Shown here: in pieces, positions 10,197 to 48,375 of the stretch
Numbering within the stretch: position 1 is the stretch's first letter
Layout: the number at the start of each line of letters is the position of its first letter
NCBI GenBank assembly: GCA_040768685.1
Contig: JAXGMM010000001.1
Span: 1,322,691 to 1,386,690 of the forward strand
Origin: Anaerolineae bacterium
Lineage (GTDB): Bacteria; Chloroflexota; Anaerolineae; DRVO01
DNA length: 64,000 bases
Direction of reading: 5' to 3'
The notes under the pieces: model-generated
Told to the model about the DNA's origin: nothing
Database searches by the model: none
What the model saw: the letters and a program-made list of their open reading frames with translations, nothing else
Translations under genes and position numbers: made by a program

Positions 10197-10208
10197 TTCG
10201 CTCTCCGT

Positions 10209-11453
10209 TCACGTTCCCAGGACGGAGCGGTAAAGGGCGAGGGTCTTCTCTGCCATCCCGCCGACGCTGAAACTAGAGGCACGCTGCAAACCGCGCCGGA
10301 CGAGAGCGTCGCGCAGCTCGGGGTCGGATAGGACGCGCAGCAGGGCCACCGCCAGCCCTTCGTCGTCCTCCGGGCTTACCAAGAGGCCGGCGTCCCCCAC
10401 CACCTCCGGGAGCGCCGAGGTATTAGAGACGATCACCGGAGTGCCACAGGCCATAGCCTCCAGCGGCGGTAGACCGAAGCCTTCGTAGTGGCTGGGGTAG
10501 GCGAGCACTGAGGCCCCGTTATAGAGGGCGACCAGATCGCTGTCCGGGACGCGCCCGAGGAAGCGCACCGCTTCCTCGAGCTTGAGTTCTTCGTGGACGC
10601 GGAGGACGTCGTCATACAGCCAACCCCACTGGCCGACGACTGCCAGCACCAACTCGGTGTGATGCTGATCCTTGAGCCGGCGGATGGCACGCATCAGAGT
10701 TGTAAGGTTCTTTCGGGGCTCGATGGTGCCCACGAAGATGGCGTATTGCTCCGGGAGCTGGTAGCGGCGGCGAACCTCCGCCACTGGCTCGCGGTCATCC
10801 AGCAGGCGGTACGTGGGGCTGACGGCCTCGGGAATCACGGTGACGCGTTCCTCCGGAGCCCCCAGCAGGCGGATGATGTCGCGCTTCGTGGTCTCCGAGA
10901 CGGCAATGATGTGATCAGCGCTGCGGACAGCCTGGTCGATCTGGCCGTAGTAGCGAGCGCTCTCCCGGGTAAGCAGATGTGGGTAAAGCAGGAACGCCAA
11001 GTCGTGAACCGTGATGACGGACCGGAAGCTGCGGTGGAACAGAGGTATGAAGTCCGGGCTGTGCAGCAGGTCGAGCTGAAGCCGGCTGAGTTCCACCCGT
11101 AGCCCGAACTGCTCGAACCTGTTGTGCGGCGGCGTCCATAGCGGCACGGAGGAGAAGTGGGTCTTCGGCAGATCCGCGTCCACCTGCCTGCGGCTCCGGA
11201 GAATAAGGAGATCCTCGGGCGGTTCCAGCCTGTCGAGGCCCTCAAGCAGCCTCAGGATGTACTGGCTGATGCCGGCCTTGCGATAGTGCAGCAGTCGAGC
11301 GTCTAGGGCGATTCGCATGGGGATTCGGTCGCTAGTCCTCGGCACATCGCTTCCACGTGTGCGCATTATAGCGAGGGGTCGGCGAGCACGCCAGAGGTGC
11401 CTCTGGCGTGGCTCTGGGACGGACTCTATAATCTCGCCATGCCCTTTGTCCAC
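10209..11453 (-). CDS. Glycosyltransferase family 4 (GT-B, group 1)
   Basis: [20 protein letters not shown] signature. Confidence 0.85.
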
Positions 11454-22495: not shown

Positions 22496-24058
22496 ATGTC
22501 GTCTACTCCTGTACCGGTGCCCCCAAGGCCGCAACTCCGTCTGCGACTCGTGGCGCTCGCTGCGCTGGCACTGAGCGGGCTGCTGCTGACCGGGTGCAGT
22601 GCAGGCGCCCGGCACGTATGCATTGCGGCGGACGGGGAGACCACGTGCGTCGACACGCGCGCCGGCCTCGCTTACGAGGTTCTGCGGGAGGTGGGCATCG
22701 AACTCGGCGAGCTGGACCGCGTCGAGCCGGACTACTGGGCCCCGGTAAGCCCCGGGCTTGAGCTGCGCGTAGTGAGAGTCGTGCACGAGCAGGAAGTGGC
22801 GGAGCAGCCCCTGCCCTTCGAGCGGCGCTTGGTCAAGACGCTCAGCCTTGAACCGGGAGTCAGCAAGCTCCTGCAGGCCGGATCAACGGGAACCGAGGCG
22901 GTGACGTACCTCGTGGTTCTCGAGGACGGCGTCGAGGTACGGCGGGAGCAAGTGCGTGTGGACGTGACCGTACCGCCCCGGGACGAGGTGGTTGCCGTGG
23001 GGATGACCAAGCCCGCCGGCACCGGCGAGTTCGGCGGCACCGTCGCCTACCTCGCCCAGGGCAATGCTTGGGTGCTGCGCGGCGACATGGAGGCCGAGCG
23101 AGCACTCACCGCCACCGGTGACTTGGACGGGCGAGTGTTCGAGTTGTCTCCGGACGGCCGATCGCTCGTGTTCACCCGACGAGTTGTCGAGCCGTCACTG
23201 ACCCTCAACCGGCTCTACGCCGTCTCAACGGAGATGGTCGATCCGGCGGCGGAGGACCTGGGAGCCGTCGGCGTGCTGCGCGCGCGCTGGTCGCCGACCG
23301 GCAACGCCATTGTCTACACCACCGCCGAGGGTACCGAGGGAAGTCCCGGTTGGCGGGCGCGGAACGACCTTTGGCTGCTGAATTGGGTGGATGAGCGGGT
23401 ACCCCGGCAGGTGCTAGAGGAGTCCTGTCTCGGTCCCTACTGTTGGTGGGGTCCCGAGCTGGCATGGGGCCCGTCGGAGGAGCGCCTGTACCTCGCGGAT
23501 GCGTCGGCCGTGTATGAAGTGGACCTCGTGGCTGGAGCCGGGCGGATGGTGGTGGAGTTCGCCCCTGTGCGCACGGGCGGCAACTGGGCCTGGGTTCCTG
23601 AGCTGAGTGTCGTGCCGGGCACCAACGTGGTGGCAATGGCTTGGCCCGCCACCGGCGCCGCCGAGGCTGACCTCACCAGCCGGTTCGACCTGGTAGTCAT
23701 CGACCCTCTAGGCGGCAGCCCCACGGTCCTGGCCGAAGGAGTGGGCATGTGGTCGCGGCCGCGCTACACCAGCCGCCCGGACGGCACCACCAGAGTGGCC
23801 TACGGCGTGGCCGACACCGGGCTTCGTTCATCCGACAGCCCCTACGCTATCTGGACGGCCGATGGCGACGGTACCGAGGCGGAGCGTGCATTCCCGCCGG
23901 CGGCCTCCGGCTCGGTCCTGTATGAGACGGTGTGGTCATCGCCGGGCTACCTGCTGATTGGCGCCGAAGGCGGGCTGTACCTGGTCCGCGCCGACGGGGG
24001 CGGCGTGAGGCCGCTACTTGAGGGGGTGCCCGTCGAGCGGGTTCAGTGGGCGCCATGA
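22496..24058 (+). CDS. Lipoprotein with a DUF348/G5-like N-terminal region and a C-terminal TolB-like (PD40) beta-propeller
   Basis: Signal peptide with lipobox LLTGC. G5-like segment (SKLLQAGSTGTEAVTYLVVLEDGVEVRREQV...VVAVG). Repeated DGRSLVF / SPTGNAIVYTT beta-propeller blades. Confidence 0.55.
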   Translation: MSSTPVPVPPRPQLRLRLVALAALALSGLLLTGCSAGARHVCIAADGETTCVDTRAGLAYEVLREVGIELGELDRVEPDYWAPVSPGLELRVVRVVHEQEVAEQPLPFERRLVKTLSLEPGVSKLLQAGSTGTEAVTYLVVLEDGVEVRREQVRVDVTVPPRDEVVAVGMTKPAGTGEFGGTVAYLAQGNAWVLRGDMEAERALTATGDLDGRVFELSPDGRSLVFTRRVVEPSLTLNRLYAVSTEMVDPAAEDLGAVGVLRARWSPTGNAIVYTTAEGTEGSPGWRARNDLWLLNWVDERVPRQVLEESCLGPYCWWGPELAWGPSEERLYLADASAVYEVDLVAGAGRMVVEFAPVRTGGNWAWVPELSVVPGTNVVAMAWPATGAAEADLTSRFDLVVIDPLGGSPTVLAEGVGMWSRPRYTSRPDGTTRVAYGVADTGLRSSDSPYAIWTADGDGTEAERAFPPAASGSVLYETVWSSPGYLLIGAEGGLYLVRADGGGVRPLLEGVPVERVQWAP

Positions 24059-27051
24059 TGGGGAAACGGCGGCTGGCCGCCCTGGCGCTCATCGCCCTGG
24101 GCGTGCTCGGGGCAGCGCTGGAGATCACGCGCGGAATGGGGGACCCACAAGTCCCGGGCGTGGTCTATGGACTGCCGGTGGCGGTCACTCCCGACGTTGG
24201 GCGCGGGGTCGGCGCCAACGTTGAGCTCATGGGCTGCCCCAAGGAGGAAGCGGAACGCGTCCTCGCCGCTATGGCCGGCAACCGGCTGACCTGGGTGCGG
24301 CAGACGTTCTCCTGGTCTGTGATCGAGCCAGCGCCCGGGGTGTTCGACTGGAAGGCGGCGGACGCTGCTATCGACGCCATCGGCGGGGCCGGGCTGAAGT
24401 TAGTGGCGGTACTGGGTACCAGTCCGTCGTGGGCTCGGCCAGCCGGCCAGGAGGCGGCCGAGTGGAGCCCCCCGGAGGACTTCGCCGACTTTGGCGGCTT
24501 CGCGTCTGCGTTCGCCAGACGCTACGGGGATCGAGTCGACTTCTACCAGATCTGGGATCAGCCCAACATTCACCCGTTCTGGGGAGACCGCTATGTAGAC
24601 CCTGAGGCCTACGGCAGATTGGTCCGGGAAGCCGCGTCGCGCATCCGCGCCGAGGATGCTGACGCGGTGATCCTGCTCGCCGGTTTGGCGCCCAACGTTG
24701 AGGCCGGCCCGCTTAACCTGAACGAGCCGGAGTACTTGCGACGGGTGCTTGCGTCCGGCGCCGGTCCTTTCTTCGACGTGGCGGCCGTCAAAGCCTATGG
24801 CTTTGAGGATGCGGCCGACGACTACCGCCTGGGAGTCGGCGCCCTCAACTTCAGCCGCGCCGCGCTGGTGCACCAGGTCCTCGCCGACGCCGGCCGAGCT
24901 GACACGCCGGTCTGGGCGGTTGAGTTCGGCTGGAACGCCCTCCCGCCGGAATGGCATGGGCGACCTGCCCCGTGGGGCACGGGCGATGTGGACACGCAGG
25001 CGGGGCAGTCGTTAGCTGCGGTGGCGAGGGCACGAACAGAGTGGCCGTGGATGGGCCCTATGATCTGGTCGCGGCTTGTCGCGCCCGCAGACCGCGATGA
25101 CCCCGCCTACGGGTTCGCCCTTCTTGAAGCGGACCTGGCCCCGACCGAGTTGGGACGTCGGCTCCTCCCCGAACTGGGCGCGGACGCGACACCTGCTCTC
25201 GGCCGGCACCGCCCCGACTCGCAGACCGCTCGGTACTCCCCCGGATGGCGCGTGACCTCGCAGGGCGCTGATCCCAGCGCCGCCGGCGACTCAGTCAGCA
25301 TCGTGTTCCAGGGCACCGCACTCGATCTGGTCCTTGCGCCTGGACCGTACTGGGCCACCTGGTCCGTGACGGTGAATGGAGAGCGTTCGGCGGCTCTACC
25401 GGTGTGGAAGGACAGCTCTTACGCTGTGCTCTACGATCCCCTGGGCGAGGCTAGGCGGGTGACCGTTGCCGCCGGGCTGCCGCCGGGCGTGCACGAGGCT
25501 ACTGTCACGGTAGACGGTGGATGGGGTCAGTGGCCTCTGCTCGGCTGGGTCAGTTGGCGGGAGGCGCCGAAGGCGCTCAGTGTCCCGGTTCTGGCCCTCT
25601 GCGCTATCGTGGCGCTTGTGGGGCTCCTGCTGCTTGGCGCTGACGGGCTGCTGCGTGCCGTAGTCCGCCATGTACTGAGGTCGAGCGAGCGCGTTCCTGA
25701 GCCGGCGCTCGCTCTATTGGTGGCCGCTCTCCTGGCGGTGTTCTGGCTGAGCGCCGGGCTCATTCCATCGGCCCTTGCCGGAACCGGCCTGGCCATAGCG
25801 GCATTGGCTGCGCCCCACTGGGTGCTGGCGGCGGCGCTGGCATCGCTTCCCTTCTTCCTCGTGCCCAAGTCGATGCTCGGCATCTCGGTCATGGCGCCGG
25901 AGTTGCTGTCGTGGCTGTTGCTCGTAGGTGTGGCCCTACGCACCTGGGCCACTCTGCCGTCGCCTGACCTTCGCCTTCGGCCGAACCTGCTCGATATCGG
26001 CGTCGCTCTCCTAGTGGCAGCGGCGGCCGTCGCCACTTGGTTCGCGCCTATGCGAGGCGTGGCCCTGCACGACTTTCGGCGCGTGATCCTGAGCGCAGCG
26101 GCGCTCTACACTGGCGCCCGGCTGTTGGGCCGGCCGGCGCTATGGCCGGCACTGATCGGTGTGCTGGCCGGCGCGTCGGTCGCTTCCGCGGCTGGGATCG
26201 GCCAGTATCTTCGGGGCGAGAACCTTATCACCACCGGTGAAGTGGCGCGCGTCCGCGCCTGGTACGGCTCTCCCAATAACCTCGCCCTCTATCTGGGTCG
26301 CGCCATTCCTGTAGGGCTCGGGCTCGTTGTCTTCAGTCGGAGCCGAAGGGTACGCTGGCCGGCGGCCGCAGCGCTGGCGATCTGCCTGGCCTGCGGGATT
26401 CTGACGCGGTCGAGGGGTCTGGTGCTGCTCGGTATTCCGGTGTCCGGCGCCTGGCTTCTCTGGCAGTCCGGCCGGCTGAGGAGTTCGCGGGGAGCCATCG
26501 TTGCGCTAGTGGCTGTGGCGTCTCTGGTGGTAGTCGCGCTGGCGGGCGGCCGCCTTGACCGGCTGGCTAGTGGTCAGGATGAAGCCGCCGGCATGCGCCT
26601 TCACGTGTGGGCGAGCGCCGCGAACATGGTCGCGGATCACCCCGTGCTGGGCGTGGGGCCCGACAACTTCCTGTACCAGTACCGGACACGGTACATCACG
26701 CCTGAGGCCTGGGCCGAGCCCAACCTATCTCACCCCCACAACCTAGTCTTCGACTTCTGGCTTACCGCGGGAGCGGGCGGGCTGGCAGCCCTGGCGATAG
26801 TGGCGGCCGGCGCTGTCCGTAGCGGTCGTCGCGCCATTCGCCACGCTGTAGGGGATGAGAGAGGGGCGTGTCTGGGCGTCGCGGCGGCCCTGATGGCGGC
26901 AACGGCGCAGGGTCTGGTCGACAACTCCTTCTTCCTGGTAGACTTGAGTCACGTCACGCTCGTGTTTCTGGCCCTGCTGGCTGCCCCGGTGCAGGCTGGC
27001 CCCGGGGCCCACTGCAAGCATGGTAACCTGCCTAGGGAGCGGATCCTATGA
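24046..27051 (+). CDS. Fusion protein: N-terminal glycoside-hydrolase clan GH-A TIM-barrel-like domain plus C-terminal multi-TM O-antigen-ligase/Wzy_C domain
   Basis: N-terminal signal anchor. TIM-barrel motifs ([28 protein letters not shown] with the NEP acid/base signature). About 12 TM helices and a Wzy_C-like loop ([17 protein letters not shown]) in the C-terminal half. Confidence 0.6.
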
Positions 27052-27992
27052 GAGTGCTGATCACCGGAGGAGCCGGGTTCATCGGCTCGCACCTGTGCGA
27101 GCTGCTGTTGGAGCGGGACCATGAGGTGGTCGTCATGGACAACCTGCTTACCGGCAGCATCGAGAACGTCAAGGGTCTGTTCGGCAAGCCCGGCTTCACC
27201 TTCGTCAAGTACGATGTCACCAACTACGTGCACGTGCCCGGGCCCGTCGACGCCATTCTTCATCTCGCTTCGCTCCCGAGCCCGGTTGACTACCTCCGCC
27301 TTCCCATTAAGACGCTGAAAGTGGGTGCCTTGGGTACCCACACCACTCTAGGCTTGGCCTGTGCGAAGAAGGCGCGCTACCTGCTCGCCTCCACCAGCGA
27401 GGTATACGGCGACCCGAAAGTTCACCCTCAGCGGGAGGACTATTGGGGTAACGTGAATCCGGTGGGGCCGCGAGGCGTCTACGACGAGTCCAAGCGATTC
27501 GCCGAGGCTCTGACCATGGCCTATCACCGCGCCCACGGACTGGAGACGCGGATCGCCCGCATCTTCAACACCTACGGGCCGCGAATGCGGCTCGACGACG
27601 GGCGCGTCATCCCCAACTTCGTCAAGCAGGCGCTCCTGGGCGAGCCAATCACTGTCTACGACGATGGCACTCGCACCCGTTCATTCTGCTACGTGTCGGA
27701 CCTGGTCGAAGGAATGTACCGGCTGCTGATGTCGGACGAGGTGGACCCGGTCAATCTTGGCAACCCGACCGAAATGACCATGCTGGAACTGGCGGAACGC
27801 GTCCGCGACGTGACCGGGTCCAGCAGCGAGGTCGTGCTGGTCAAGCCCAAGGACGATCGCACCAAGGACGACCCGCAGATGCGGCGCCCGGACATCGGTA
27901 AGGCGCAGCGCATCTTGGACTGGAGTCCGCAGGTGCCGGTAAGCGAAGGACTGCGCTATACGGTGGACTACTTCCGCAGCCGAGTGCGATGA
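27048..27992 (+). CDS. uxs: UDP-glucuronate decarboxylase (UDP-xylose synthase-like, extended SDR)
   Basis: [20 protein letters not shown] catalytic region, full-length UXS-family similarity. Start overlaps the upstream stop (ATGA). Confidence 0.85.
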
Positions 27993-29419
27993 CCTTTTCG
28001 GCGGGAGACGCCTGGCGGCCGCGGCTGGAGCGTGCCGGTCTCACCCTGGGCGGAATAGGCCTGGGCGTGGCGCTGGCCGCTGCCCCTTGGCGCCTGTCGT
28101 TGCTGGTGGCGGGTGCGCCGGCGGCGGTCGTAGGGTTGCTCTTCCCCCATCTGCTGTTGGCGGCCCTCCCGCTGGCCGTTCTTGTCGCCCAGGACTTCTC
28201 GGTGCCCTTCGGCGGCCTGCGGCTAGGTCCGGTGGAGATCCTCGTGGGTGCTTCGGCGATAGCCTGGGCATCAAGAGGGGTGGCGGAGCGGAGACTGGAG
28301 TGGTCGCCGGGGCCGGTCCAGCGCGCGTTACTGGCATGGCTCTGGGTGATCGGGCTCAGTCTCTTGGCGAGCGCCTCTCTCAGCGCTGGTCTCAGTGAGA
28401 CCGCCAAATGGCTGGAGATCCTGCTGCTGGCGGCGATCACGCCGGCGATCGCCGGCGGCGGCCGGGCACGCTATGTCGTCTGGGGCGTGGCGGCCGCCGG
28501 AGTTGTCGCCGCCCTTCTAGGCCTCTACCAGTTCGTGACCGCCTCTGGACCACCGGGATTCATGCTGATGGGTCGATTCATGCGCGCGTATGGTACCTTC
28601 CGACAGCCCAATCCCTACGCGGCGCATCTCGGCCTGTCGCTGCCCTTTGCGGCCGGCTGGGCCCTGGCGGGACCGGTCGGGCGGCGGGAACGGTGGATCC
28701 TTCTGGCCGCTGCCGCCGTGATGGCGATGGGCATCATGGCCAGTTGGTCGCGCGGCGCCTGGCTGGGGCTGGGCGTGTCGGCGGCGCTCATGGCGGCACT
28801 GTTGTGGCCGCGCGTGGCCATAGGGGTGGCCGCACTGGCGCTGATCATCAGTCCTCTGTGGGTCGGACCGGCAGCATCCAGTGCTCTGGCGCAACGAGCC
28901 CTTGGGATGGGCGGCGGCGTCCCGGGCCTGAACGTGGCTCAGGTGGAGCCCACGGATGACAACTGGTCGGTGGTGGAGAGACTTGCACATTGGCAGGCGG
29001 GCTGGCGCATGTTCGAGGCGAAGCCATGGCTGGGGGTTGGCATCGGCAACTATGAGGTGGTCTACGCCTCCTACGGCATACCGCGCTGGTCCGACCCGCT
29101 TGGCCATGCACACAACTACTACTTGAACATCGCGGCGGAGACCGGCCTGATCGGCCTGACGTCCCACGCGGCGCTTGGCCTAGTGGTGTGGATCACTCTC
29201 GCCCGCTCGTGGCGCAGGCGACCCGACAGTCGCTCGCGCGGCCTACTTCTTGCAGGGATAGGAGCACTGGCGTACCTTTCGGTGCACAGCATCGTCGACA
29301 ATCTCTACGTGCACGGCATGCAGGTCCTGGTAGGCTTGGCCCTGGCGGCGCCGGCCTGGGGCTCTGTGGGGGACGCCGCATCCACGCGCGGGGTGGGTTC
29401 ATGCAGATCGGGACTTTGA
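27989..29419 (+). CDS. O-antigen ligase / Wzy_C-family polytopic membrane protein (second copy)
   Basis: About 11 TM helices, Wzy_C-like periplasmic loop ([14 protein letters not shown]...[17 protein letters not shown]). ATGA overlap with uxs. Confidence 0.7.
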
Positions 29420-29892
29420 TGTCGCGCCCGGAGCGGCGGCGCGAAGTGGGCCGTTTCCTGAAGTTCGCCACCGTCGGAACGCTCGGCGCGGTGATAGACT
29501 ACGGCCTGCTCAACTTGCTGATTCTTGCCGGAGGAATGCCCAAGTTCTGGGCCAACTGCTGCTCGTTTACGGCGGCAGTGCTCAGCAACTTCGTGTGGAA
29601 TCGCCTCTGGACATTCCCGGAGTCCCGCGAGCGCCCCGTGGGGTCCCAACTTCTGCAGTTCGCCGTGATCAACATCATCGGGCTGGCCATCAACCAGGCC
29701 ATTTTCCTTTCGGTAGATCACCTGGTGCTCGGTGAAGGGGGAGTGTGGTCCCTGCTGACGCTACAGCTATCGTCGCTTCTGGGGATCGCGGCGCCCGTGG
29801 TGGCTTACAACCTCTCTAAGGCCTGCGCCACCGTTGTGGCCCTCTTCTGGAACTTCGGCGGCAACCGGTTGGTAACCTATCGGGGACTCTAG
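29401..29892 (+). CDS. GtrA-family small membrane protein (putative lipid-linked sugar flippase component). Start re-assigned to the internal ATG.
   Basis: FLKFATVGTLGAVIDYGLLNLLI GtrA signature, 4 TM helices, 163 aa. Confidence 0.75.
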   Translation: MQIGTLMSRPERRREVGRFLKFATVGTLGAVIDYGLLNLLILAGGMPKFWANCCSFTAAVLSNFVWNRLWTFPESRERPVGSQLLQFAVINIIGLAINQAIFLSVDHLVLGEGGVWSLLTLQLSSLLGIAAPVVAYNLSKACATVVALFWNFGGNRLVTYRGL

Positions 29893-29896
29893 ACCC

Positions 29897-31018
29897 ATGG
29901 CGCTCTCCATCGCCTTTGACGCTGGCCCCACCGCGCAGGGCGCGGGCGTCGGGCGATACGCGTCGGGTCTGCTTCGGGCGCTCCTCAGCCAGGAGTCGGA
30001 CGACGCGCACACCCTGGTGCTTCCCCGCGGCATGCCGGTTCCAGCCCTGGAGGGTGAAGTGGGCCGCTGGCGGGCCATGCATCTGCCGGTTGGCGAACGA
30101 GCGGCCGACATCGCGTGGCACCGCTTGCGGCTGCCTCTGCCCATCGATCTGCTTTGCGGCCGTCCGGACGTCTTCCACGCACCTAACTTCCTGCTGCCGC
30201 CTCTGCTTCGGGCAAAGGGCGTAGTGACGGTCCATGACCTGAGCTACTTGCGGCTGCCCCAGTACGCTTACCCCAGCCTGGCACGCTACTTGGCGTCCGC
30301 GGTTCCCCGGTCTCTGCGCCGGACCGACATCGTTCTGGCCGATTCGCGTAACACAGCGGACGATGTGACGGAACTCCTGCATGTCCCGGCGGATCGGGTG
30401 CGGCCCGTGTACCCGGGAGTCGACGACCAGTTCACTCCCAGTGCGGCCCCCGGTGAGCGTGAGGACCTTGAGCGGGTCTGCGGCATCGCCGGTCGGTACG
30501 TACTGTGTGTGGGGACCATTGAGCCCCGCAAGAACCTGGTGGCTGCTATTCAAGCCTTTGAGCACGCATCCGAGGAGCTGGGGGCTGATCTGGAGCTGGT
30601 GCTGGCGGGGGCGGTGGGCTGGATGGCGGATGAGACCTTGACGGCTGCACGGGCGGCTGGGCCCCGGGTTCGCCTGATTGGCAGGTTGCCCGACAGTCGG
30701 CTACCGGCGCTGTACCGTGGCGCCGAGGCCCTGCTGTACCCGTCCCACTACGAGGGGTTCGGACTGCCGCCGTTGGAGGCGATGGCCTGCGGCACGCCGG
30801 TGATCGTGTCGCGCAACTCCTCTCTACCGGAGGTGGTCGGCGAGGCGGGAGTGTACTGCGGAACGGACAGCGAGTCCATCGCCGCCGCCCTCGTCGCCCT
30901 GCTTGCCGACAGTGGGAGGCGGGCGCGGCTCGGCCGGGCAGGTCTGGAGAGGGCCAGGCTGTTCACCTGGGAGGCAGCCGCGGAGCAGGTCCGGGGAATC
31001 TACTATGAACTGGCGTAG
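29897..31018 (+). CDS. Glycosyltransferase family 4
   Basis: [20 protein letters not shown] signature. Confidence 0.85.
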
Positions 31019-31631
31019 GCCGGCCGCGGCCCTGCCTGTTGTTCTTGGGGCGCTGAGCCTGTGGTTGCCGTGGGTGGGTCACCGGGGTGCGGCTCTAGTC
31101 CTAACGGGGCTCGACCTTCCCGACTTCGTGCGCTTCATGGGAGCCTCGGCCGCGCCGCTGGTCCGCCCGACTCAGATCGCGTTTGCAGTTCCTCTCTTAG
31201 CGCTCGCGACTACCGGCATCCTGTGGGCCTGGTCGCGCGCGTCAGCCACCTTTTGGTTCCGGGCCGCCGCCCTGGTTATGGCGCTTTGGCTGGCGTCGGT
31301 GGCGTTCAGCCCGCTGGAGCGACGGAGGGAGTTCCTGCTCGTCGGATCTGCCCTGATCCTGGCATGGCTCGTGGCGGGAGCGATGCGCGCCCCCATGTGG
31401 TCGGCGCGGGCGGTAGGGCTCGTCGGTGGACTAGCCGGCGCGGTCGCGACTCTCGTGCAGTTCGCTCGCGTGATGCCGGCGCTCGCCGGGCTGTACGGCA
31501 CGGTGGTCTGGGGAGTAGGCCCGTGGCTCGCCCTTGCGGCGGCCGCGACGGCGACAGTAGCGGTTGCCGATGCCTGTTGGAGACGCGTCGTCCGGCCGGC
31601 TCTCAGCCGACGTCGATCCACCCGAGTATGA
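31005..31631 (+). CDS. Polytopic membrane protein of unknown function (6 predicted TM helices), last gene of the plus-strand glycan operon. Start re-assigned.
   Basis: Hydrophobic Trp/Ala/Leu-rich sequence. Start overlaps the GT4 stop; 3-prime end overlaps the convergent GT-C gene by 29 nt. Confidence 0.4.
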   Translation: MNWRRPAAALPVVLGALSLWLPWVGHRGAALVLTGLDLPDFVRFMGASAAPLVRPTQIAFAVPLLALATTGILWAWSRASATFWFRAAALVMALWLASVAFSPLERRREFLLVGSALILAWLVAGAMRAPMWSARAVGLVGGLAGAVATLVQFARVMPALAGLYGTVVWGVGPWLALAAAATATVAVADACWRRVVRPALSRRRSTRV

Positions 31632-34350
31632 CGGAGTCCGTCGGCGACGCGGCCCCCGCGACGGTCACCGGCGCCCTGGGCATTCCCGGTTCTTCAGGCA
31701 GATACCAGCCGACCTCGAACGCGTAGCGGCCGGCCCCAAGCTCGAGGGGCAGGGCCAGCTCGAACTCCGCCCGGACCACCTCACCCCCCAGCCATCCGGC
31801 CGTCGGCCGTCCCGGCGGCGTCCCCTGCGCCTGAGCGAGCACCCTTCCTTCGGCGCTGAGAAGGTGCAGGAACACGGCGTAGTTGCGGTCCGGCGTGAAC
31901 ACGGCCTTGAAGACGAGTTCGATGTGCAGCGTGTCCCCCGCCGACGCCTGAGTGGGCTCAACGTTGAGGCCGACGAGTTCCGCCATCCCGCCGATCATGG
32001 CGCCGGAGGGGAACGAGGTAGTCACGTCGGAGTAGTCTCGCATCACGGGCGCGACCTGCAGCGTGCATACGGTGAAGTCGTCAGCCGCCTCAGCATCCCC
32101 GGAGACCCGCAATCGCAGCGACGTCTGCCCATCTGCGGCGTCCGCCGGGACTCTCCCGTCCAGCCACACAAGATGCACGGAGTCTGCGTCAGCCGGTCGG
32201 GAACCGACGGGCAGCGCCACCTCGCCCGCCGGTCGCTCTCCGTCGTCGCCGACCAGCACCGCCGCCAGAGTGGTACGTCCCGGCGCAGCGTCCGGCGCCA
32301 CCGACAGGAGCATCGGCAGCGCGAAGTCGACCCCGGGGAACAGCGGTTCCGTCGGGCAGGCCCCAAGAGCGATCACCGTGGTACCCGCCCACCCAGAGTG
32401 GTCGACCGGCAGAAGCCCGTGCTCCGCGGCCGCCGCGGTTGCGTCAACGCCGGCCGTGTTGCCGGCGAGACTCAGCACGCCCAGCGAGCAGGTCTGTCCG
32501 GCTGGATTACCGGCTTCGTCGAGGACGTCCCGAGGGCGGCCCGAATCGGCCTCGTACAGGGTGACGGAGGCAGTGTAGTCGCCCTCCGCTACTCCAGCGG
32601 GAGTACGGGGATCGAGCCTGACGAACGCGACCCGGCTGGGAGCCCACCGACTGGTCGGGTAGCCGTCACCGCCGGGCGCCAGGTGCACGCGTGTGACCTC
32701 GTGGCCACGGGAGTCACTGATGGTGACCTGGACGCGCAGATCGAGTGCCAAGGGCCGGAGTGCCCGCCACAGCAGGGCGACGTTGCCGGCTTTGTCCGGC
32801 GCCAGGCCAAGGTACTCGATCCCGCCCTCGAACCGACAGACGGGCGTACGGTCGGTTGAGGCGAGCTCCGGCAGGTTCGAGGAGCCGTCGAGACGATAGT
32901 GGCGCGTGCGCACATGCCAGTAGCCTCGCTCCTCGCCGACTGCAACCTGGTCGAGCAGGAAGGGAACCGATCCCATCGGGTCCACTACCTCGTCCTGCCA
33001 GAGCAGCAGCCACGTCCCGGAAGCACCCTCCAGGGCCACGCGAAGATCGTCAGCCACGTTGAGGCCAAGCGACGAGTCTACGTCCAGCACGCGCAGCTTC
33101 GGGAGCGGAACGTAGGGGATGGTGGGCGCATAGTACTCCCACACCGGGTACAGGTGGCCGGAGACCAACAGCACGACCTCGTCGGGCTCCATTTGGGCGC
33201 CGATGTCGGCGACGGCGGACCGGAAGTCGGCTCGCGTCAGCCGCTGGTCTACGAACATCCCCCTGATGCCGGCGCCGGAACCCAACACGACCGCGCCGAG
33301 CGCAACCGCCCCGATCCAGCTCCCACCTCTTGCCGGCTTCCGCCACAGAGGCGAGACCGCCTGACCCCACAGAAGGGGCAGGGGAAGCGAGGCGAGCACA
33401 AGGTAGCGCGGGTTGAACTTGGGGACCACCAGGAACACGGCCAAAGTCGCTACCAAGGTGGCCACCAGAATGCTGAGCGGCCAGAGCGAGGTCCTGGAGC
33501 GGTTGGCCACGAGAGCGACTGCCAGGACGGCGGCCATAGCGACCGCCAGGTAGACGCCCGTGCTTTCCAGGACCGTTTCGCCCGGGCCGCCAACGAAAAG
33601 CGCCACCAGCACCTTGCGGAGTGCCTCGTCGAGCTTGAGGCTGCCGACGAAATAGGAGGTGTCACTTCGCATAGTGCGCAGGGCGGCCGGCATCCAAGGA
33701 ATGAACAGGAGGGCGGCCGGCAGAAGACCCCGGTACAGATAGCGCGGCAGAAGCCGCCTGCCCTGCGATGGACGAGACGACCAGACCATCGACAGCAGGT
33801 GGGCGACCACGAGGCCCGCCCCCAGGTAGTGAGTGTAGAGAAGGGCGGCATACCCCAGCGCGAGGGTAGCATCGGACTTCCATGAGCGCTCAAAGCCACG
33901 ACCCTCCCAGGCGAGAAGAGCCAGGGTGGCGGCCGCGCCCGTCAGGAGGAGAAGGCTGTACATGCGCGCGTCTTGGGCGTGCCAGACGTACCAGGGATGG
34001 ATGGCGACCACGAGAGCGGCCACCGGCGCGGCATCCTCCAGGCGGAGACGTCTGGCCAGCCGGTACATCAGAGGCACGAGGACCACGGACAACATGACCG
34101 AGAGGAACCGAAGCGAGAACTCGGAGTTGCCGGCAACTGAGGCCCACGCCTTCAACAGCAGGTAATAGAGCGGCGGCTGCACGTCCGCAGCCGTCCAGGC
34201 CAGCATTTCGCGTAGCGGAAGGCCCGCGAGATAGGCGCTGACGGCCTCGTCGTAGGAGAGGCTTTGGACGGGCAGATGGTAGACGCGCAGGGCAAAGGCA
34301 GCGGCTACGAGAGAGAGTGCGGTAAGATGAGTTCGCCGGTGCATACTCAT
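31603..34350 (-). CDS. GT-C-fold glycosyltransferase of the PMT/ArnT-like (GT39/GT83, PMT_2) type, with a roughly 550-aa extracytoplasmic C-terminal region built of repeated beta-sandwich-like modules
   Basis: N-terminal YDEAVSAYLAGLP...DVQPPLYYLLLKAW motif typical of PMT_2/ArnT-like enzymes, about 11 TM helices, long C-terminal soluble domain. Confidence 0.7.
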   Translation of the reverse strand: MSMHRRTHLTALSLVAAAFALRVYHLPVQSLSYDEAVSAYLAGLPLREMLAWTAADVQPPLYYLLLKAWASVAGNSEFSLRFLSVMLSVVLVPLMYRLARRLRLEDAAPVAALVVAIHPWYVWHAQDARMYSLLLLTGAAATLALLAWEGRGFERSWKSDATLALGYAALLYTHYLGAGLVVAHLLSMVWSSRPSQGRRLLPRYLYRGLLPAALLFIPWMPAALRTMRSDTSYFVGSLKLDEALRKVLVALFVGGPGETVLESTGVYLAVAMAAVLAVALVANRSRTSLWPLSILVATLVATLAVFLVVPKFNPRYLVLASLPLPLLWGQAVSPLWRKPARGGSWIGAVALGAVVLGSGAGIRGMFVDQRLTRADFRSAVADIGAQMEPDEVVLLVSGHLYPVWEYYAPTIPYVPLPKLRVLDVDSSLGLNVADDLRVALEGASGTWLLLWQDEVVDPMGSVPFLLDQVAVGEERGYWHVRTRHYRLDGSSNLPELASTDRTPVCRFEGGIEYLGLAPDKAGNVALLWRALRPLALDLRVQVTISDSRGHEVTRVHLAPGGDGYPTSRWAPSRVAFVRLDPRTPAGVAEGDYTASVTLYEADSGRPRDVLDEAGNPAGQTCSLGVLSLAGNTAGVDATAAAAEHGLLPVDHSGWAGTTVIALGACPTEPLFPGVDFALPMLLSVAPDAAPGRTTLAAVLVGDDGERPAGEVALPVGSRPADADSVHLVWLDGRVPADAADGQTSLRLRVSGDAEAADDFTVCTLQVAPVMRDYSDVTTSFPSGAMIGGMAELVGLNVEPTQASAGDTLHIELVFKAVFTPDRNYAVFLHLLSAEGRVLAQAQGTPPGRPTAGWLGGEVVRAEFELALPLELGAGRYAFEVGWYLPEEPGMPRAPVTVAGAASPTDSVILGWIDVG

Positions 34351-36710
34351 TCGGCCCCCGTTGCTGCGCTGATCTGCACCTTGCCGAGGACTATGCTCGG
34401 GTTGCAGGAGAAGGGAGCCGCCGTCTCGTGATCGTAGGGTATCGCGACGACCTCATACTCGCCGGATCCGAGGCTGCTGGACAGAGACAGCGCCTTGACG
34501 TCGGGGACTACCTCGCCAGGCGGCCAGTAGGCAGGGGGATAGAGGCCCTGCTGAACCGGCCCATCCAGTTGGGCGAGGACTTCGCCGTGCGCTCCAACCA
34601 TGCGGATCGACAGGGACAACCCTGCGGTAGGCGCGTCCGTGCGGCTCCAGTACGAGGTGATCCTCAGGCTGTCCCCGGCGGAGGCTGTGTTGGTCACCTC
34701 GGCACCCCGGTACTGCAGCCAGCTCGCGCAAGTGACTGTTGGCGTCCCGCCCGAAGGGGCGGATGCCGCTAGTGGGGCGAGCGCCGGTCTGAGTCCCTGT
34801 CGGATCCTTTGGACGGGGGGCAACCGAACCAAGTTCGTCTCGCCGATGGCCGGTACGGCCCCGTCCGAACTAGGGACCAGCCGGGCGGCAACCTGATCGT
34901 AGTCGCCGTCCACAACCACGCCCACGTATGCTCCCCAGGAGTCTCCCAGAGCGGTCGCCACGGTAGTTGTGATCCAGGTGTCGCCGGGCGTCCACTGGCT
35001 GACCGGCACCCAGTACGTCTCCAGGAAAGGCATAGATCGGCTGTCGGCAACGATCTGGCCGCGTCCATCGACCAACACGGTGTACGGTGCGAGCGACGGG
35101 CTCACCGGGCCAACAGCCTGCCAGTGCAGCCGCAGGGACGTGTAGCCCCACTTGGGGTCGTCGAGCCAGTCGTAGCCCGCCAGACGAAGGCTGGCGCCGA
35201 ACTGGACGTTCGCTATGTGGGTCGGTTCCTGCTTCGCTAAGGTGAAAGCGTAGAAGCTGTCTGGCGGGCTTCCATTGGCCTCTCCGCGGCGGAGCAGCAC
35301 CATCCCGTCCTCACCATCGACCACCCCGTATCCGGAGGCTAGCAGTTCGTCGACACGGGCACGCACATCGGCCGGGTGCATGTCGGTTGTGCCGGCGATG
35401 TCCAGCAAGACATACTCGGCGTCAGCAAGGTCGGGGAAGGTATAGATCCGCTCACGGTGGCTGAAGTGCGGGTGCAGCGCTGGGGTGACAGAGAGCGAGG
35501 CGTTCGCCGGAATCTGGTCGGCGAACGGCGCCAGCGCATCTGCGCGCGCCCCGGTTGGTCTGTGCAGGTAGTACTGTGGACCGAATGGGGTGAACCCCTC
35601 AGCAACCTGGTAACCGACCGGGAAGACAGCCAGGACCAGCAGCACGACAACGGGCAGACGGCGGTGAGCACGGCCGGTCCAGCGGAGGAGCCGACACGCG
35701 CCGACCCCGGCGGCAATAGCCAGGACCGACATGAACGGGGCACTGTAGTGGAACTCGCCGGAGAACTGGGCGTCGTAGTGGCTGAGGACGTTGGCCGCCA
35801 CCAAGGGGGCAGCCGCCAGTGCCACCTCGGGAGCCAAGAGAGGCATGAACCCGAAGGCGGCCAGAAGGCCCAGCATGTAGGCGAGCCGATCGGCCGAAAC
35901 GGCCCGTGCGGCGATCGCGGCTATGTTGGACAGAGGACTGCCCGAAGCAGTTGACTCGGACCCTTTATAGCGGGCTAGGTAGGGCATTGTGGCCTCGCCG
36001 TAGGCCTCGACGCTGTAAGAAGGGATGATGACCAGCGTGGCGAGCGCGAACCAGGCGACGGCCGCCACGGTCACGCCGTAGCCGGGCTTCCAGCGCGAGG
36101 TAACTGCCAACAGCAGGGCCACCGCGGCCACGACCAGCGCGATCTCCTCCTTAACGGCAATAGCAGCCGCGGCCGCCACTAGGGCCGGCCCCGTTCTCCG
36201 CCTCCGTCCGAGCAGGAGGAGCAGGGCGAGCGGCAGGGTCGCCAGCGGCGCGGCGTGGAAGTCGGCGACGGTAGCTGCCTGTACCTGGGGGGCCAGCAGG
36301 TAGGCCAGCGCTGCCCAGGTAGCCGCGATCGCTCCAAGCCGCGAGGCCCTGCCCGGCCACCAGGCCGCCACGGCGCCCCAGATCATCAAAGCCGAAAGAC
36401 CGATCACCAGCGCCTGCAGCGAAAGGAGCGCTCTCGCGTCGTCCCACAGCCCGAAGACCACCGCTACCGGCCAGAAAACCGGCTCGATGTGATCGGTCAG
36501 CCGCGTGCTGATGACCTCGCCTTTCACCTCTTGGACGAAACGCCCGTGGAGAGTGTTCCAGATGGCCAGGTCGATCTGGCCCAAGTCGGCGGTGTGCGTC
36601 ATGAGGCCATCGTGCCTCTCGATGGCGAACCAGGCGAAGAAGGCCACGAACGCGACAGTCCCGACGGCCGCCAGGACGAGCAGCCGGTGTTGGAGGCGAA
36701 GGCTTGTCAC
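34347..36710 (-). CDS. DUF2079-family polytopic membrane protein (predicted GT-C-like) with a C-terminal repeat-module domain
   Basis: N-terminal multi-TM region with DUF2079-like signature (HTADLGQIDLAIWNTLHGRF). C-terminal modules share the GxY...GxY pattern with the neighbouring GT-C. ATGA overlap with the upstream gene. Confidence 0.55.
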   Translation of the reverse strand: MTSLRLQHRLLVLAAVGTVAFVAFFAWFAIERHDGLMTHTADLGQIDLAIWNTLHGRFVQEVKGEVISTRLTDHIEPVFWPVAVVFGLWDDARALLSLQALVIGLSALMIWGAVAAWWPGRASRLGAIAATWAALAYLLAPQVQAATVADFHAAPLATLPLALLLLLGRRRRTGPALVAAAAAIAVKEEIALVVAAVALLLAVTSRWKPGYGVTVAAVAWFALATLVIIPSYSVEAYGEATMPYLARYKGSESTASGSPLSNIAAIAARAVSADRLAYMLGLLAAFGFMPLLAPEVALAAAPLVAANVLSHYDAQFSGEFHYSAPFMSVLAIAAGVGACRLLRWTGRAHRRLPVVVLLVLAVFPVGYQVAEGFTPFGPQYYLHRPTGARADALAPFADQIPANASLSVTPALHPHFSHRERIYTFPDLADAEYVLLDIAGTTDMHPADVRARVDELLASGYGVVDGEDGMVLLRRGEANGSPPDSFYAFTLAKQEPTHIANVQFGASLRLAGYDWLDDPKWGYTSLRLHWQAVGPVSPSLAPYTVLVDGRGQIVADSRSMPFLETYWVPVSQWTPGDTWITTTVATALGDSWGAYVGVVVDGDYDQVAARLVPSSDGAVPAIGETNLVRLPPVQRIRQGLRPALAPLAASAPSGGTPTVTCASWLQYRGAEVTNTASAGDSLRITSYWSRTDAPTAGLSLSIRMVGAHGEVLAQLDGPVQQGLYPPAYWPPGEVVPDVKALSLSSSLGSGEYEVVAIPYDHETAAPFSCNPSIVLGKVQISAATGAE

Positions 36711-37693
36711 GCCGGCCCCCGGTTACGGGGCGACCATACCAGGGAACGATTGGTCCCCAGCGCCACGGCCGCCGCCAGCAACTCGGCGACCGTCAGCCAC
36801 AAACGGGCCGCCAGCGCCGCCACGCCGGCAACACCGGCGCCGGCCACCGGCGCCAGCAGCAGGGCCAGCACACCCTCGCGCACGCCCACGCCGCTGGGTG
36901 TGAGGAGCGATAGGTAACCGGCGACATAGGAGGCGGGGAAGGCGGAGGCCCAACCGATGAGGTCGCCGCTGTTCGCGCCGAGCGCTCGTCCAAGCGACCA
37001 GAACGCCGTTCCGAGCCCAACCCAGTAGAGGCAATAGCCGAGCAGAATGAGGGCGAGGGGCGCCTGCGAAAGACGGACCTGGCCGGAAGGTGGACGGGCA
37101 ATGGGCGTCAAAACGCGGCTCAGACGGGTCAACGTCCACGGACTGAGACCGAAGGCAACTACCGCTAGCCCAACGGCCACGCCCGTCAGCCAAGTAGCGC
37201 GGGAGGCGCCAAGCGCCGACACGAGAGCGGGCACGCCGATCAAGACGCCGGTGGCGTTGGTGAGGACCTGGTGCGCGGCCACGCTGGCCAGGATCGCTCC
37301 CCGCGGCACACCGCTGTCCGCGCCGAGCTCCATCATGCCGACGAACTGCCATATCCTGCCCGGTACATAGCGCGCCAGGTTCGAGAGGAACCACACGCCT
37401 GCCGCCCGGCGCAGGGGAAGCTCGTGGCCAAGCTCGAGGAGCAGGCGCCGCCAAAGGGCCACCTCAAGAAGCATGCAGGGAAACAGGCCGAGGATGCTGA
37501 CGCCCAGCCAGTTCCAGCTAAGCTGAAGACGGAAGGCACGGATGTCGGCGGAGTAGGCGCGTAGTACGGCGGCCAAGAAGCCCAAACTGAGGATGATGAA
37601 CGCCATACGGAGCCAGGGGTTGGCCGACAGGCGTCGCAGGCGGTCCAGGACGGCCGCACCTCGGGCGCTCCAGATCCGTGGGCTGGCGTCCAT
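36707..37693 (-). CDS. UPF0104 / lysylphosphatidylglycerol-synthase-TM-domain-like membrane protein (flippase-like). Start re-assigned to MDASP.
   Basis: 8 TM helices, LSNLARYVPGRIWQF motif typical of the LPG_synthase_TM (flippase-like) family. The tracked 485-aa ORF has a spurious 157-aa N-terminal extension overlapping the GT4 gene. Confidence 0.6.
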   Translation of the reverse strand: MDASPRIWSARGAAVLDRLRRLSANPWLRMAFIILSLGFLAAVLRAYSADIRAFRLQLSWNWLGVSILGLFPCMLLEVALWRRLLLELGHELPLRRAAGVWFLSNLARYVPGRIWQFVGMMELGADSGVPRGAILASVAAHQVLTNATGVLIGVPALVSALGASRATWLTGVAVGLAVVAFGLSPWTLTRLSRVLTPIARPPSGQVRLSQAPLALILLGYCLYWVGLGTAFWSLGRALGANSGDLIGWASAFPASYVAGYLSLLTPSGVGVREGVLALLLAPVAGAGVAGVAALAARLWLTVAELLAAAVALGTNRSLVWSPRNRGPA

Positions 37694-37697
37694 GCCC

Positions 37698-38924
37698 CTA
37701 CGGAGCCGTAGAGCGGCCGGCTGCGATGCGCTCGAAGTGCTCCAGGTAGCGAGCCGCCAGATGGCTCCAGGCGAACTCGGCCTCCACCCGCCGGCGTCCT
37801 GCCTGGCCCATGCTGCGCAAACGGCGGCGATCGCTGTAGAGGCGTGCCAGGGCGTCGGCGATAAGGTCGGCGCGGCGCTCCGGGACGAGGTAGCCGTTGT
37901 GCCCGTCCTCGACGACCAGCGGATTGCCGGCGACCGTTGTCGCCACAATCGGCAGGCTGCACGACATGGCGTCGAGAACGCACACGTTGAGGCCGTCCTC
38001 CGGCTCGGTGACCGAGGGCATGGCCAGCACATCGGCGGCACTGTAGTAGGCGACGATCTCGTCCCGCGGCACGGCGCCGACGAACTCCACTGCCGAGCGC
38101 ACACCCATCGCCGAAGCCATGCGCTCCAGGTTGGCGCGCTCGTTGCCGTCGCCGATGAGCACAACGCGAGCGGTAGGCACGCGCGACAGCAGCCGGGGGA
38201 GCGCCTGAATCAGGTAGCGGAACCCCTTCTTCGGCACCATGCGGCCCACGCCGAGGATGGCGAAGTTGCCCGGGCTGAGGCCCAACTCGCGCCGCTTCTC
38301 CTCGCCGGCCAGCGGGTCCGCTCGCATCGCGTCGGGGTCGACGCCGTAAACGATCAGATCGAAGCGGCCTTCGTCGGCGCCCAGCGTCAACGCCACGTCG
38401 CGCAACTCGTGGCTGTTGGCCGTCACCAGACTGGAGTGGCGGAGTGCGTAGCGGGCCAGAGCCCTTGTGACTGGGTTGAGCCGGGCAACCAGCAGATCGG
38501 ACCCTGGCAGCGAAGTGGCCAGCGGGACGCCGGTCATCTTGCTGATGGCGGCGCCGATGAGGCCGTTGGGAACCAGCCAATGGGCGTGAATCACGTCGGG
38601 TTTCCATTCGCGGGCGATTCGCCTGCCCGCCGCTGCCCCGGCAGCCAAGCTCGCCGGCGCTGCCAGCAGGCTGGCACGCTTGGGGCGCAGGTCGCCTTCC
38701 ATGCTCCGCATGTAGCCGACGGTCTCAAAGGCCGCCGGCCCGTAGCGGTAGAGGTCAAGAACGTATGGGCGTTCCATAGGCGGGCCGTATGCGGCGTCAT
38801 GAGGGGCAAGGACACGCACCGCCGCACCCTTGCCGACCATGGCTGCGGCCAAGGCATCAATGAACGTCCCGCTGAAGTCCCCGGGGAACCGGGGAAGGTT
38901 GTGGGTGAGGAGCAGCACTTTCAT
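37698..38924 (-). CDS. Glycosyltransferase family 4
   Basis: MKVLLLTHNLPRFPGDFSGTF N-terminus and C-terminal GT4 region. Confidence 0.85.
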   Translation of the reverse strand: MKVLLLTHNLPRFPGDFSGTFIDALAAAMVGKGAAVRVLAPHDAAYGPPMERPYVLDLYRYGPAAFETVGYMRSMEGDLRPKRASLLAAPASLAAGAAAGRRIAREWKPDVIHAHWLVPNGLIGAAISKMTGVPLATSLPGSDLLVARLNPVTRALARYALRHSSLVTANSHELRDVALTLGADEGRFDLIVYGVDPDAMRADPLAGEEKRRELGLSPGNFAILGVGRMVPKKGFRYLIQALPRLLSRVPTARVVLIGDGNERANLERMASAMGVRSAVEFVGAVPRDEIVAYYSAADVLAMPSVTEPEDGLNVCVLDAMSCSLPIVATTVAGNPLVVEDGHNGYLVPERRADLIADALARLYSDRRRLRSMGQAGRRRVEAEFAWSHLAARYLEHFERIAAGRSTAP

Positions 38925-38927
38925 GGC

Positions 38928-39902
38928 CTATGTCCGGTCCCGCCGACGAATCTCGACCATGAGCGCATCTAGCTGCTCTGTCTGCGCCACAATGAGTTCC
39001 GCGAGAAAGCCGACTAAGAACAGCAACAATCCGGCGGCGATCAGCACTAACGAGAGGCTGAAGAGCGGGCGAACTTGGGTCCGCTCCAGCAGGTAGTACA
39101 GCGCCAGCAAGACACCCAGAAGCGCCCCCAGGGCCTCGCAGGCCAGCCCCAGGCCGCCGAAGAAGAGCATGGGTCTGCGGCTGAAGGTGAGGAGGAACTT
39201 GACCACCAGGACGTCGAGGAACGAACGCGGTATGCGGCCGATGCCGAACTTGGAGCGGCCCTGGCGTCGGGGTTGGTACGATGTCTTTACCTCGCCGACG
39301 CGGTACCCGTGGGCAGCGGCGATCACCAGGATGAAGCGGTGCCAGTCGGAGCGTAGGGTGATGTCCTCCAGCACTTCCCGCCGGAAGGCCTTGATCCAGT
39401 TCATGTCATGGGCATCGACGCCGAACAGCCGGGCCGAGACCCAGTTGTATACCCGGGACGCCGGCACCTTGCCGTCCTTACGGCCCTGGCGCCAGCCGGA
39501 AACCACATCGTACCCTTCTTCCAGTTTGCGGAGCAGGGCCGGCACGTCGATCTCCGGGTCCGACTCAAGGTCCGCCGGTATGAAGACGACGGTGTCGCCG
39601 CGCACGGCGCTGAATCCGGTCCGCATAGCCTCGGTGAGGCCGCGGTTGTGGCGGTGTCGCAGAACCCTCAGCCACGGGTACCGGGAGCACGCCTCTTGAA
39701 GGAGCTCGCCGGTGCCATCGGTCGAGCCATCGTCGACGATTACCGCTTCTGCCGGAAGCGCCAGAGCCGTCAGGGTGCGGTCTAGCTTCTCCAGCAAGAG
39801 CGGTATGTTGCCCGCCTCGTTGTAGGCAGGGGCAAACACCGATACGGCCACCGGAGTGCTGCCGGACTCCATGTCGCTATACGACCTTAGTCCCTCAGGC
39901 AC
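38928..39902 (-). CDS. GT2 polyprenyl-phosphate sugar synthase (GtrB / ArnC / DPM1-like) with two C-terminal TM helices
   Basis: VFAPAYNEAGNI, VDDGSTDGT, DxD-like (FIPADLESD) motifs; C-terminal TM pair as in GtrB/ArnC. Confidence 0.85.
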   Translation of the reverse strand: MPEGLRSYSDMESGSTPVAVSVFAPAYNEAGNIPLLLEKLDRTLTALALPAEAVIVDDGSTDGTGELLQEACSRYPWLRVLRHRHNRGLTEAMRTGFSAVRGDTVVFIPADLESDPEIDVPALLRKLEEGYDVVSGWRQGRKDGKVPASRVYNWVSARLFGVDAHDMNWIKAFRREVLEDITLRSDWHRFILVIAAAHGYRVGEVKTSYQPRRQGRSKFGIGRIPRSFLDVLVVKFLLTFSRRPMLFFGGLGLACEALGALLGVLLALYYLLERTQVRPLFSLSLVLIAAGLLLFLVGFLAELIVAQTEQLDALMVEIRRRDRT

Positions 39903-48368: not shown

Positions 48369-48375
48369 CGGGCAC

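Follow-up and report, generated by a model that had tools for sequence, protein, structure and literature searches.

Wzx/Wzy-dependent pathways are the commonest bacterial route to surface polysaccharides, and two described systems are the closest to the gene analyzed here. PslG of Pseudomonas aeruginosa (PDB 5bx9, 4zn2 and 9g17) is an endo-β-glucanase of glycoside hydrolase (GH) family 39 that belongs to the pathway for the exopolysaccharide Psl. It is tethered to the membrane and has, outside the cytoplasm, a (β/α)8 barrel with a β-sandwich after it, and the locus for glycan assembly that encodes it also encodes PslJ, a polymerase of the Wzy type. The catalytic pair of PslG consists of the acid/base Glu165, within an N-E-P motif, and the nucleophile Glu276, and E165Q+E276Q is the standard inactive mutant (PMC6813494, PMC11912335). 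What the glycoside hydrolases encoded with such pathways do is debated, PslG being seen as an enzyme needed for synthesis, a failsafe or a dispersal enzyme (PMC6813494, PMC13434223), and a 2026 study proposed that PslJ acts inside a PslE cage, shielded from PslG, with PslG as the failsafe (PMC13434223). The second system is WaaL (PDB 7tpg and 7tpj) and the wider Wzy_C group (Wzy/PslJ and PglL/PglS); for WaaL and PglS, the proposal is that arginines contact undecaprenyl pyrophosphate (Und-PP) through its pyrophosphate and that a histidine acts as the catalytic base (PMC12800693). In a 64,000-nucleotide stretch of an Anaerolineae genome (Chloroflexota; assembly GCA_040768685.1, contig JAXGMM010000001.1, positions 1,322,691 to 1,386,690; hereafter the window), a single gene (24046..27051, + strand) encodes relatives of both in one polypeptide. 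The fusion is built from two known kinds of protein, is widespread and is uncharacterised; no description was found in the literature of a fusion between PslG or another GH and an O-antigen ligase, nor of a Wzy_C protein in the Chloroflexi with such an architecture.

Domain architecture of the fusion protein

The gene is a genuine open reading frame (ORF) of 1001 amino acids with a GTG start and alternative in-frame ATG starts at 24055 or 24058. A first-pass annotation, made from the sequence alone, had proposed an N-terminal signal anchor, a clan GH-A-type barrel and a Wzy_C-like membrane domain in one chain, and this architecture is borne out by domain matches and by an AlphaFold2 model built on an alignment of 119 family members (mean predicted local distance difference test score (pLDDT) 91.1, predicted template modelling score (pTM) 0.85), which is confident across domains. 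The anchor is a helix over residues 2–29 in the model (24049..24132; all features of the gene are on the + strand), with a hydrophobic segment at residues 10–28 by scan and K-R-R before it, and its presence places residues 30–510 outside the cytoplasm. The region of about 480 residues that had been read as glycosidase is a triosephosphate isomerase (TIM) barrel for only some 330 of them (residues ~50–380; 24193..25185); the rest is made up by a β-sandwich of about 120 residues (386–505; 25201..25560) that is all-β in the model, has a sub-threshold match to CE2_N and, as the Foldseek comparison below also indicates, takes the position of the C-terminal β-sandwich of PslG. The polytopic membrane domain of the WaaL/Wzy type follows at residues 513–985 (25582..27000), identified from the hydrophobicity scan, the model and a profile match to WaaL.

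PslG is the nearest solved relative of the ectodomain by sequence and by fold. A single-sequence phmmer search against the PDB matched it at E 2e-9, and a profile of the 119 family members at E 2e-30 (profile positions 51–378), with further GH39 structures at E 3e-11 to 1e-5 and with GH42/GH35 matches confined to the first ~70 residues. Foldseek against the PDB also ranked PslG first (E 3.6e-18), ahead of other GH39, GH5, GH30 and GH35 barrels, and since the alignment ran to 478 columns against a 414-residue target, both the barrel and the β-sandwich were matched. The predicted barrel is eight-fold, with strands β1 55–59, β2 83–89, β3 118–124, β4 166–169, β5 208–210, β6 245–251, β7 289–295 and β8 336–341, and its eight β/α units occupy residues 55–377 at pLDDT >93. 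The Pfam Glyco_hydro_39 model gave no match on the fusion protein and only a partial Glyco_hydro_42 match was returned (residues 65–132, E 2e-6); the latter, to the start of the Glyco_hydro_42 model, takes in an 11-residue motif that the annotation had likened to GH5/GH35/GH42-type openings. Judged from the profiles and the model, the closest family of the ectodomain is nevertheless GH39/PslG, though the Pfam GH39 model is silent. Several features set it apart from PslG: the barrel is covalently joined to the Wzy_C protein, whereas PslG is separate from PslJ; the −3/−5 subsite residues of PslG (His81, Asp83 and Arg84) are not kept in the fusion family; and the β5–α5 loop carries a 4-residue family-specific insertion with an invariant Asn224.

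The membrane half matches Pfam PF04932 (Wzy_C) over residues 775–916 (26368..26793), a core that includes an extracytoplasmic loop, with a score of 73.4 bits (cut-off 31.7; E 2e-20). A PDB search with the membrane half as a single sequence gave no match, and WaaL of Cupriavidus metallidurans (7tpg) was reached by the family profile only, at E 3e-8. In that alignment three motifs correspond: R-L-x-x-W (Arg851; codon 26596-26598) to R-L-K-I-W of WaaL, G-V-G-x-D-N-F to G-V-G-V-G-Q-F, and S-H-P-H-N-x-x-x-D (His898, codon 26737-26739, and Asp903) to E-H-A-H-N-D-I-V-E. Neither Arg851 nor His898 varies in any of 79/79 species representatives, and Arg836 is kept in 72/79 (species-representative counts refer to the best 80 of at least 588 related stretches that came from scanning a single genome for each GTDB species). 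The hydrophobicity scan and the model, in which a helical bundle spans residues 513–979, support a polytopic topology of the ~12–13-helix type, the helix count being approximate. The Wzy_C match and the Arg/His motifs are shared with WaaL and the wider group; unlike WaaL, the protein carries ~510 extra N-terminal residues, comprising the anchor helix, barrel, β-sandwich and one return helix.

The scores of the equivalog models all miss the cut-off by a wide margin, for RfaL (24.7 bits against 277), for the IctB family TIGR00947 (66 bits against 366.4) and for the NCBIfam TuaE, TfpM and exosortase-linked ligase models, so that the protein belongs to the Wzy_C superfamily and to none of these named subfamilies, each of which was rejected as its identity. 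Genes for LPS (lipopolysaccharide) biosynthesis and BAM are missing from the Chloroflexota, whose envelope layers are described as being of unknown composition (PMC13319060). The designation ‘O-antigen ligase’ therefore cannot be literal, nor can the acceptor be lipid A-core, and WaaL proper was excluded on these grounds together with the RfaL score.

Catalytic residues of the barrel

The canonical catalytic dyad is incomplete in the window protein. In both the single-sequence and the profile alignments, the acid/base Glu165 of PslG pairs with Gln172 (in I-W-D-Q-P-N; CAG codon, 24559..24561), and the nucleophile Glu276 pairs with Glu293 (in A-V-E-F-G-W; GAG codon, 24922..24924). The model places Gln172 just after β4 and Glu293 on β7, the sites expected for clan GH-A, and the β6 Tyr251 is present. 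Of the two carboxylates that the annotation had proposed to check on strands 4 and 7, the one on β7 is in place, as in PslG, and the position at strand 4 is a glutamine; N-E-P of PslG has become D-Q-P here and is D-E-P in most relatives.

The annotation had assigned the acid/base to a different N-E-P, in L-N-L-N-E-P-E-Y (Asn226-Glu227-Pro228; 24721..24729). This assignment is excluded by the PslG alignment and by the order of strands in the model, which put the motif after β5, where the β5–α5 loop passes into the helix. Residues 226–228 belong to the family-specific loop insertion relative to PslG, and Pro228 is usually Val or Ala in relatives. With the N-E-P misplaced, a glutamine at the acid/base and a nucleophile that varies across the family, the proposal of an active hydrolase or transglycosylase module finds no support in the form in which it was made; one of the two catalytic carboxylates is absent from this protein, and across the family the pair is largely absent.

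Distribution of the fusion and evolution of the dyad

A search of 5.8 billion proteins returned 339 relatives, and an exact look-up of the window protein in public assemblies gave no record. Almost all of the top 120 relatives are ~1000 amino acids long, with 92–98% query coverage and 37–62% identity, and where named they are called ‘O-antigen ligase family protein [Anaerolineae/Chloroflexota]’. The best 80 stretches of the genome scan each span query residues ~35 to ~980. All 80 belong to Chloroflexota genomes, most of which carry an Anaerolineae label (Anaerolineales, Caldilineales, Ardenticatenales, Thermoflexales, Promineifilaceae and Aggregatilineales). The barrel and Wzy_C occur in one frame in 80/86 related loci, and most of the remaining six differ only because the alignment slightly overruns a stop or the contig ends. 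The fusion is evolutionarily fixed and not an assembly accident and, going by the taxonomy of the best 80 of at least 588 stretches, is conserved class-wide in the Anaerolineae.

In an exhaustive search with the ectodomain only, 393 clusters reached E ≤ 1e-30, and the majority of the top 150 are 870–1110 amino acids long. Hits of ~480–530 amino acids, which would be the split forms, are mostly annotated as partial fragments or lie on tiny contigs. One cluster among them, P0138 (526–528 amino acids, six members, one of them on a 13-kb contig), is possibly a stand-alone barrel and β-sandwich without Wzy_C. A shorter fusion variant of ~840–930 amino acids, also with Wzy_C, is represented by proteins P0153, P0159, P0181, P0190, P0220 and P0231 and is carried by the cultured Litorilinea aerophila (WP_141611866.1). 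Only the barrel of this variant matches the window ectodomain, up to query residues ~340–375 of 481, and thus its β-sandwich may be missing or replaced.

Across the family, the catalytic dyad is unstable. Among 119 relatives the acid/base column holds E103/Q12/A3/D1, and the nucleophile is Glu in 71/119 relatives and 18/80 species representatives. The combined acid/base–nucleophile states are E/E (60 of 119), E/A (38), Q/E (8, the clade of the window protein), Q/A (4), E/S (3), A/E (3), E/G (2) and D/A (1); Gln172 is common to the window protein and its 7 closest relatives. Both glutamates are kept in 10/80 species representatives. Across all 80, the nucleophile site is occupied by Ala (18), Glu (18), Asn (15), His (11), Ser (6), Gln (4), Asp (4), Thr (1) and Leu (1), with two untallied. 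By eye, this variation sits within a conserved W-A-x-X-F-G-W-N motif, of which the nucleophile site is the most variable position, and members with neither carboxylate exist (e.g., H-N-P-N with Ala or Leu at the nucleophile site). A rough neighbour-joining/Fitch estimate, not a likelihood one, gives at least 23 changes on the tree at the nucleophile site and 4 at the acid/base site. The residue before the acid/base is usually Asn in clan GH-A, and in this family it is Asp in 106/119, giving a D-E pair.

The domain that carries these changes remains constrained. Mean pairwise identity is 44.4% for the TIM barrel, 43.7% for the β-sandwich, 40.9% for the membrane domain and 49.1% for the Wzy_C core, and the ratio of barrel to membrane identity is unchanged in the 63 sequences without the nucleophile Glu. 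R85, W90, W102, D106, W129, W170, N174, W179, Y189, N224 and W335 of the barrel are invariant, and E219 and D244 nearly so. Because the dyad is unstable and the barrel is still constrained, these sequence comparisons argue that the conserved function of the barrel is not canonical retaining hydrolysis, with the conserved chemistry instead assigned to the membrane domain. Catalytically degenerate proteins of glycosidase fold, such as the chitinase-like lectins and the GH1-like Klotho, similarly have one or both carboxylates replaced in a domain under selection. These examples come from animals and plants and are either soluble or cross the membrane once, and the fusion family differs from them in having mixed catalytic states within one orthologous family; we know of none among them that is fused to a lipid-linked-glycan transferase.

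Gene neighbourhood

The window is a chromosomal stretch of 66% G+C that includes FtsA/FtsZ, a ribonucleotide reductase and a class I tRNA synthetase, and the fusion gene is housed in an envelope-glycan cluster at approximately 22.5–42 kb. Directly upstream lies the gene of a lipoprotein (22496..24058, +; lipobox L-L-T-G-C) in which Pfam identifies DUF348, G5 and a PD40/Tricorn-like β-propeller; its stop overlaps the start of the fusion gene by 13 nt, and the two genes are probably translationally coupled. To our knowledge, DUF348-G5 is otherwise found ahead of cell-wall-cleaving domains and not of propellers. The stop of the fusion gene is in turn overlapped by an NAD-dependent sugar-nucleotide epimerase/dehydratase (27048..27992, +; Pfam), followed by a stand-alone Wzy_C protein of 476 amino acids (27989..29419, +; Pfam E 4e-22), which the annotation had rightly placed two genes downstream. 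The stand-alone and fused Wzy_C proteins share 28% identity over 258 amino acids, which marks the former as an old or distant paralogue and excludes a recent duplication. Next come a small membrane protein of the GtrA family (29188..29892, +; domain match and synteny), the real start of which is probably near 29400, and a family 4 glycosyltransferase (GT4; 29897..31018, +; Pfam and synteny).

In species-representative loci with enough flank, a G5 gene is directly upstream on the same strand in 32/64, the epimerase is downstream in 30/69 and the Wzy_C2/GtrA/GT4 genes are downstream in 14–15/53 (stand-alone Wzy_C, 14/53). At the locus of one homologue, P0025 (L005, 11097-13451), the downstream epimerase is 784 amino acids long and contains an intein (Intein_splicing and LAGLIDADG_3).

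Opposite-strand genes for membrane proteins adjoin the cluster: a 915-amino-acid PMT_2 protein of the GT-C type (31603-34350, −), a 787-amino-acid DUF2079 protein (34347-36710, −) and an LPG_synthase_TM protein (36707-38164, −); a second PMT_2 protein lies at 60080-62098 (−). The opposite strand of the cluster also holds a GT4, a GT2 (38928-39902), a DegT aminotransferase and a hexapeptide transferase. From these domain assignments, the PMT_2, DUF2079 and LPG_synthase_TM proteins, with GtrA and GT2, look like a system for side-chain glycosylation from polyprenyl-phosphate sugars. Elsewhere in the window, a GT9 of the heptosyltransferase family (7847-9103, −) adjoins two GT4 genes (8976-11453); the phylum is reported to be without LPS biosynthesis. 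Other observations include a regulator of unusual architecture in which a LuxR/GerE-type helix-turn-helix is fused to a Kelch-repeat β-propeller (48298-49698, +), a tyrosine recombinase with Phage_integrase and SAM-like N-terminal domains (49688-50590, −), possibly XerC/D or a mobile-element integrase, and a 944-amino-acid protein that combines an RNase T/DnaQ-like exonuclease with a DinG-type helicase (DEAD and Helicase_C_2; 56199-59033, −).

Discussion

The reading that we favour, at about even chances given the alignments and the model, is that the fusion protein is a ligase or polymerase of Und-PP-linked glycans with a built-in PslG-like module that mostly binds glycan without hydrolysing it. 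Catalysis would lie with the membrane domain: the sugar-nucleotide enzymes and glycosyltransferases encoded nearby would supply a glycan linked to Und-PP, and the domain would move this glycan to an acceptor outside the cytoplasm. In a ligase mode the acceptor could be a conserved glycan or glycolipid of the envelope, and in a polymerase mode the next repeat unit. The PslG-like module, not an obligatory hydrolase, would keep the acceptor or the nascent polymer close to the site of transfer, and the G5 lipoprotein encoded upstream would tie the system to the cell wall. Since the fusion is the widely conserved partner, a ligase role for it is favoured, with the variable stand-alone Wzy_C acting as the putative repeat-unit polymerase. 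In sum, the fusion probably helps to build the outer cell layers, themselves poorly understood, of the Anaerolineae, a class of filamentous bacteria.

Several points weigh against this reading. Approximately 85% of family members keep the acid/base glutamate, which is odd for a pure lectin, and since 10/80 species representatives and half of the closer relatives have the complete pair, hydrolysis may be important in certain lineages. The genes identified in the window include no Wzx flippase, no chain-length regulator and no initiating phosphoglycosyltransferase, and conservation patterns are what the putative division of labour between ligase and polymerase is based on.

Alternatively, the barrel could be an active PslG-like endoglycosidase tethered to the polymerase, trimming chain length, releasing polymer or performing a failsafe clearance as proposed for PslG. 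Its closest solved relative is such an enzyme, the nucleophile and the β6 tyrosine are present, 60/119 near relatives have both glutamates, and exopolysaccharide operons routinely include glycoside hydrolases (for the roles of PslG, PMC6813494, PMC13434223). Against this stand the glutamine at the acid/base, given that the E165Q+E276Q form of PslG is catalytically inactive (PMC6813494), the loss of the nucleophile in most species representatives, the equal conservation of the domain in members that lack both residues, and the proposal for Pseudomonas that the polymerase is shielded from PslG and not joined to it (PMC13434223); we consider this explanation unlikely. Catalysis could also be non-canonical, either through a nucleophile-only barrel in the Q/E clade that transglycosylates activated donors such as Und-PP-glycans, or through substrate-assisted action on N-acetylhexosamine polymers in the Asp171-Glu172 majority that lacks a nucleophile. 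The D-E pair resembles the catalytic pair of substrate-assisted (GH20-type) hexosaminidases, the acid/base is far better conserved than the nucleophile, and the partner has a G5 domain in a cluster with amino-sugar genes (DegT and the hexapeptide transferase). The D-E mechanism cannot apply, however, in the clade of the window protein, with its Gln172; several members have neither carboxylate, and such chemistry is quite unlikely.

A more speculative prospect, and a quite unlikely one, is a two-site machine special to monoderm Chloroflexota, in which the barrel, as a natural variant without the acid/base or without the nucleophile, would dock onto or transglycosylate a cell-wall glycan and the Wzy_C domain would ligate an Und-PP-linked polymer to that glycan. 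Secondary envelope polysaccharide would thereby be attached without LCP-type enzymes, and the outer layers of the Anaerolineae envelope would be built in this way. Were it true, the fusion would serve as a ‘Rosetta stone’ for other bacteria, with the implication that their PslG-type hydrolases and Wzy polymerases, though separate proteins, work in physical contact. Wzy_C enzymes also include O-oligosaccharyltransferases with the same Arg/His chemistry (PMC12800693), and a PglL/PglS-like protein O-glycosyltransferase could act on envelope proteins such as the G5 lipoprotein, with the barrel as a docking domain. The tight coupling of the fusion gene to the lipoprotein gene and a weak, sub-threshold match to the exosortase-associated ‘O-glycosylation ligase’ model would fit, but every NCBIfam match is far beneath its cut-off, WaaL is the sole solved relative detected and a carbohydrate-active fold is odd for docking a protein, so this role is very improbable. 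An artefact, be it a random ORF, a faulty assembly or a frameshift that merged two genes, has in its favour only that characterised systems seldom show such an architecture, and is ruled out for practical purposes by more than 100 full-length homologues, by the loci in which both parts are in frame and by the confident single-chain model.

Returning to a transferase with a mainly glycan-binding head, the presence of both partners in one chain and of natural variants lacking either glutamate makes a non-hydrolytic role of a hydrolase fold directly testable, and Litorilinea aerophila is a cultured carrier usable for experiments. Interest in the family would grow if the head turned out to dock the acceptor, or to transglycosylate, in the service of cell-wall attachment in these monoderms. 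As the Chloroflexota lack LPS and possess envelope layers of unknown make-up, the fusion, with its putative glycan-binding head, is a concrete candidate for making those layers.

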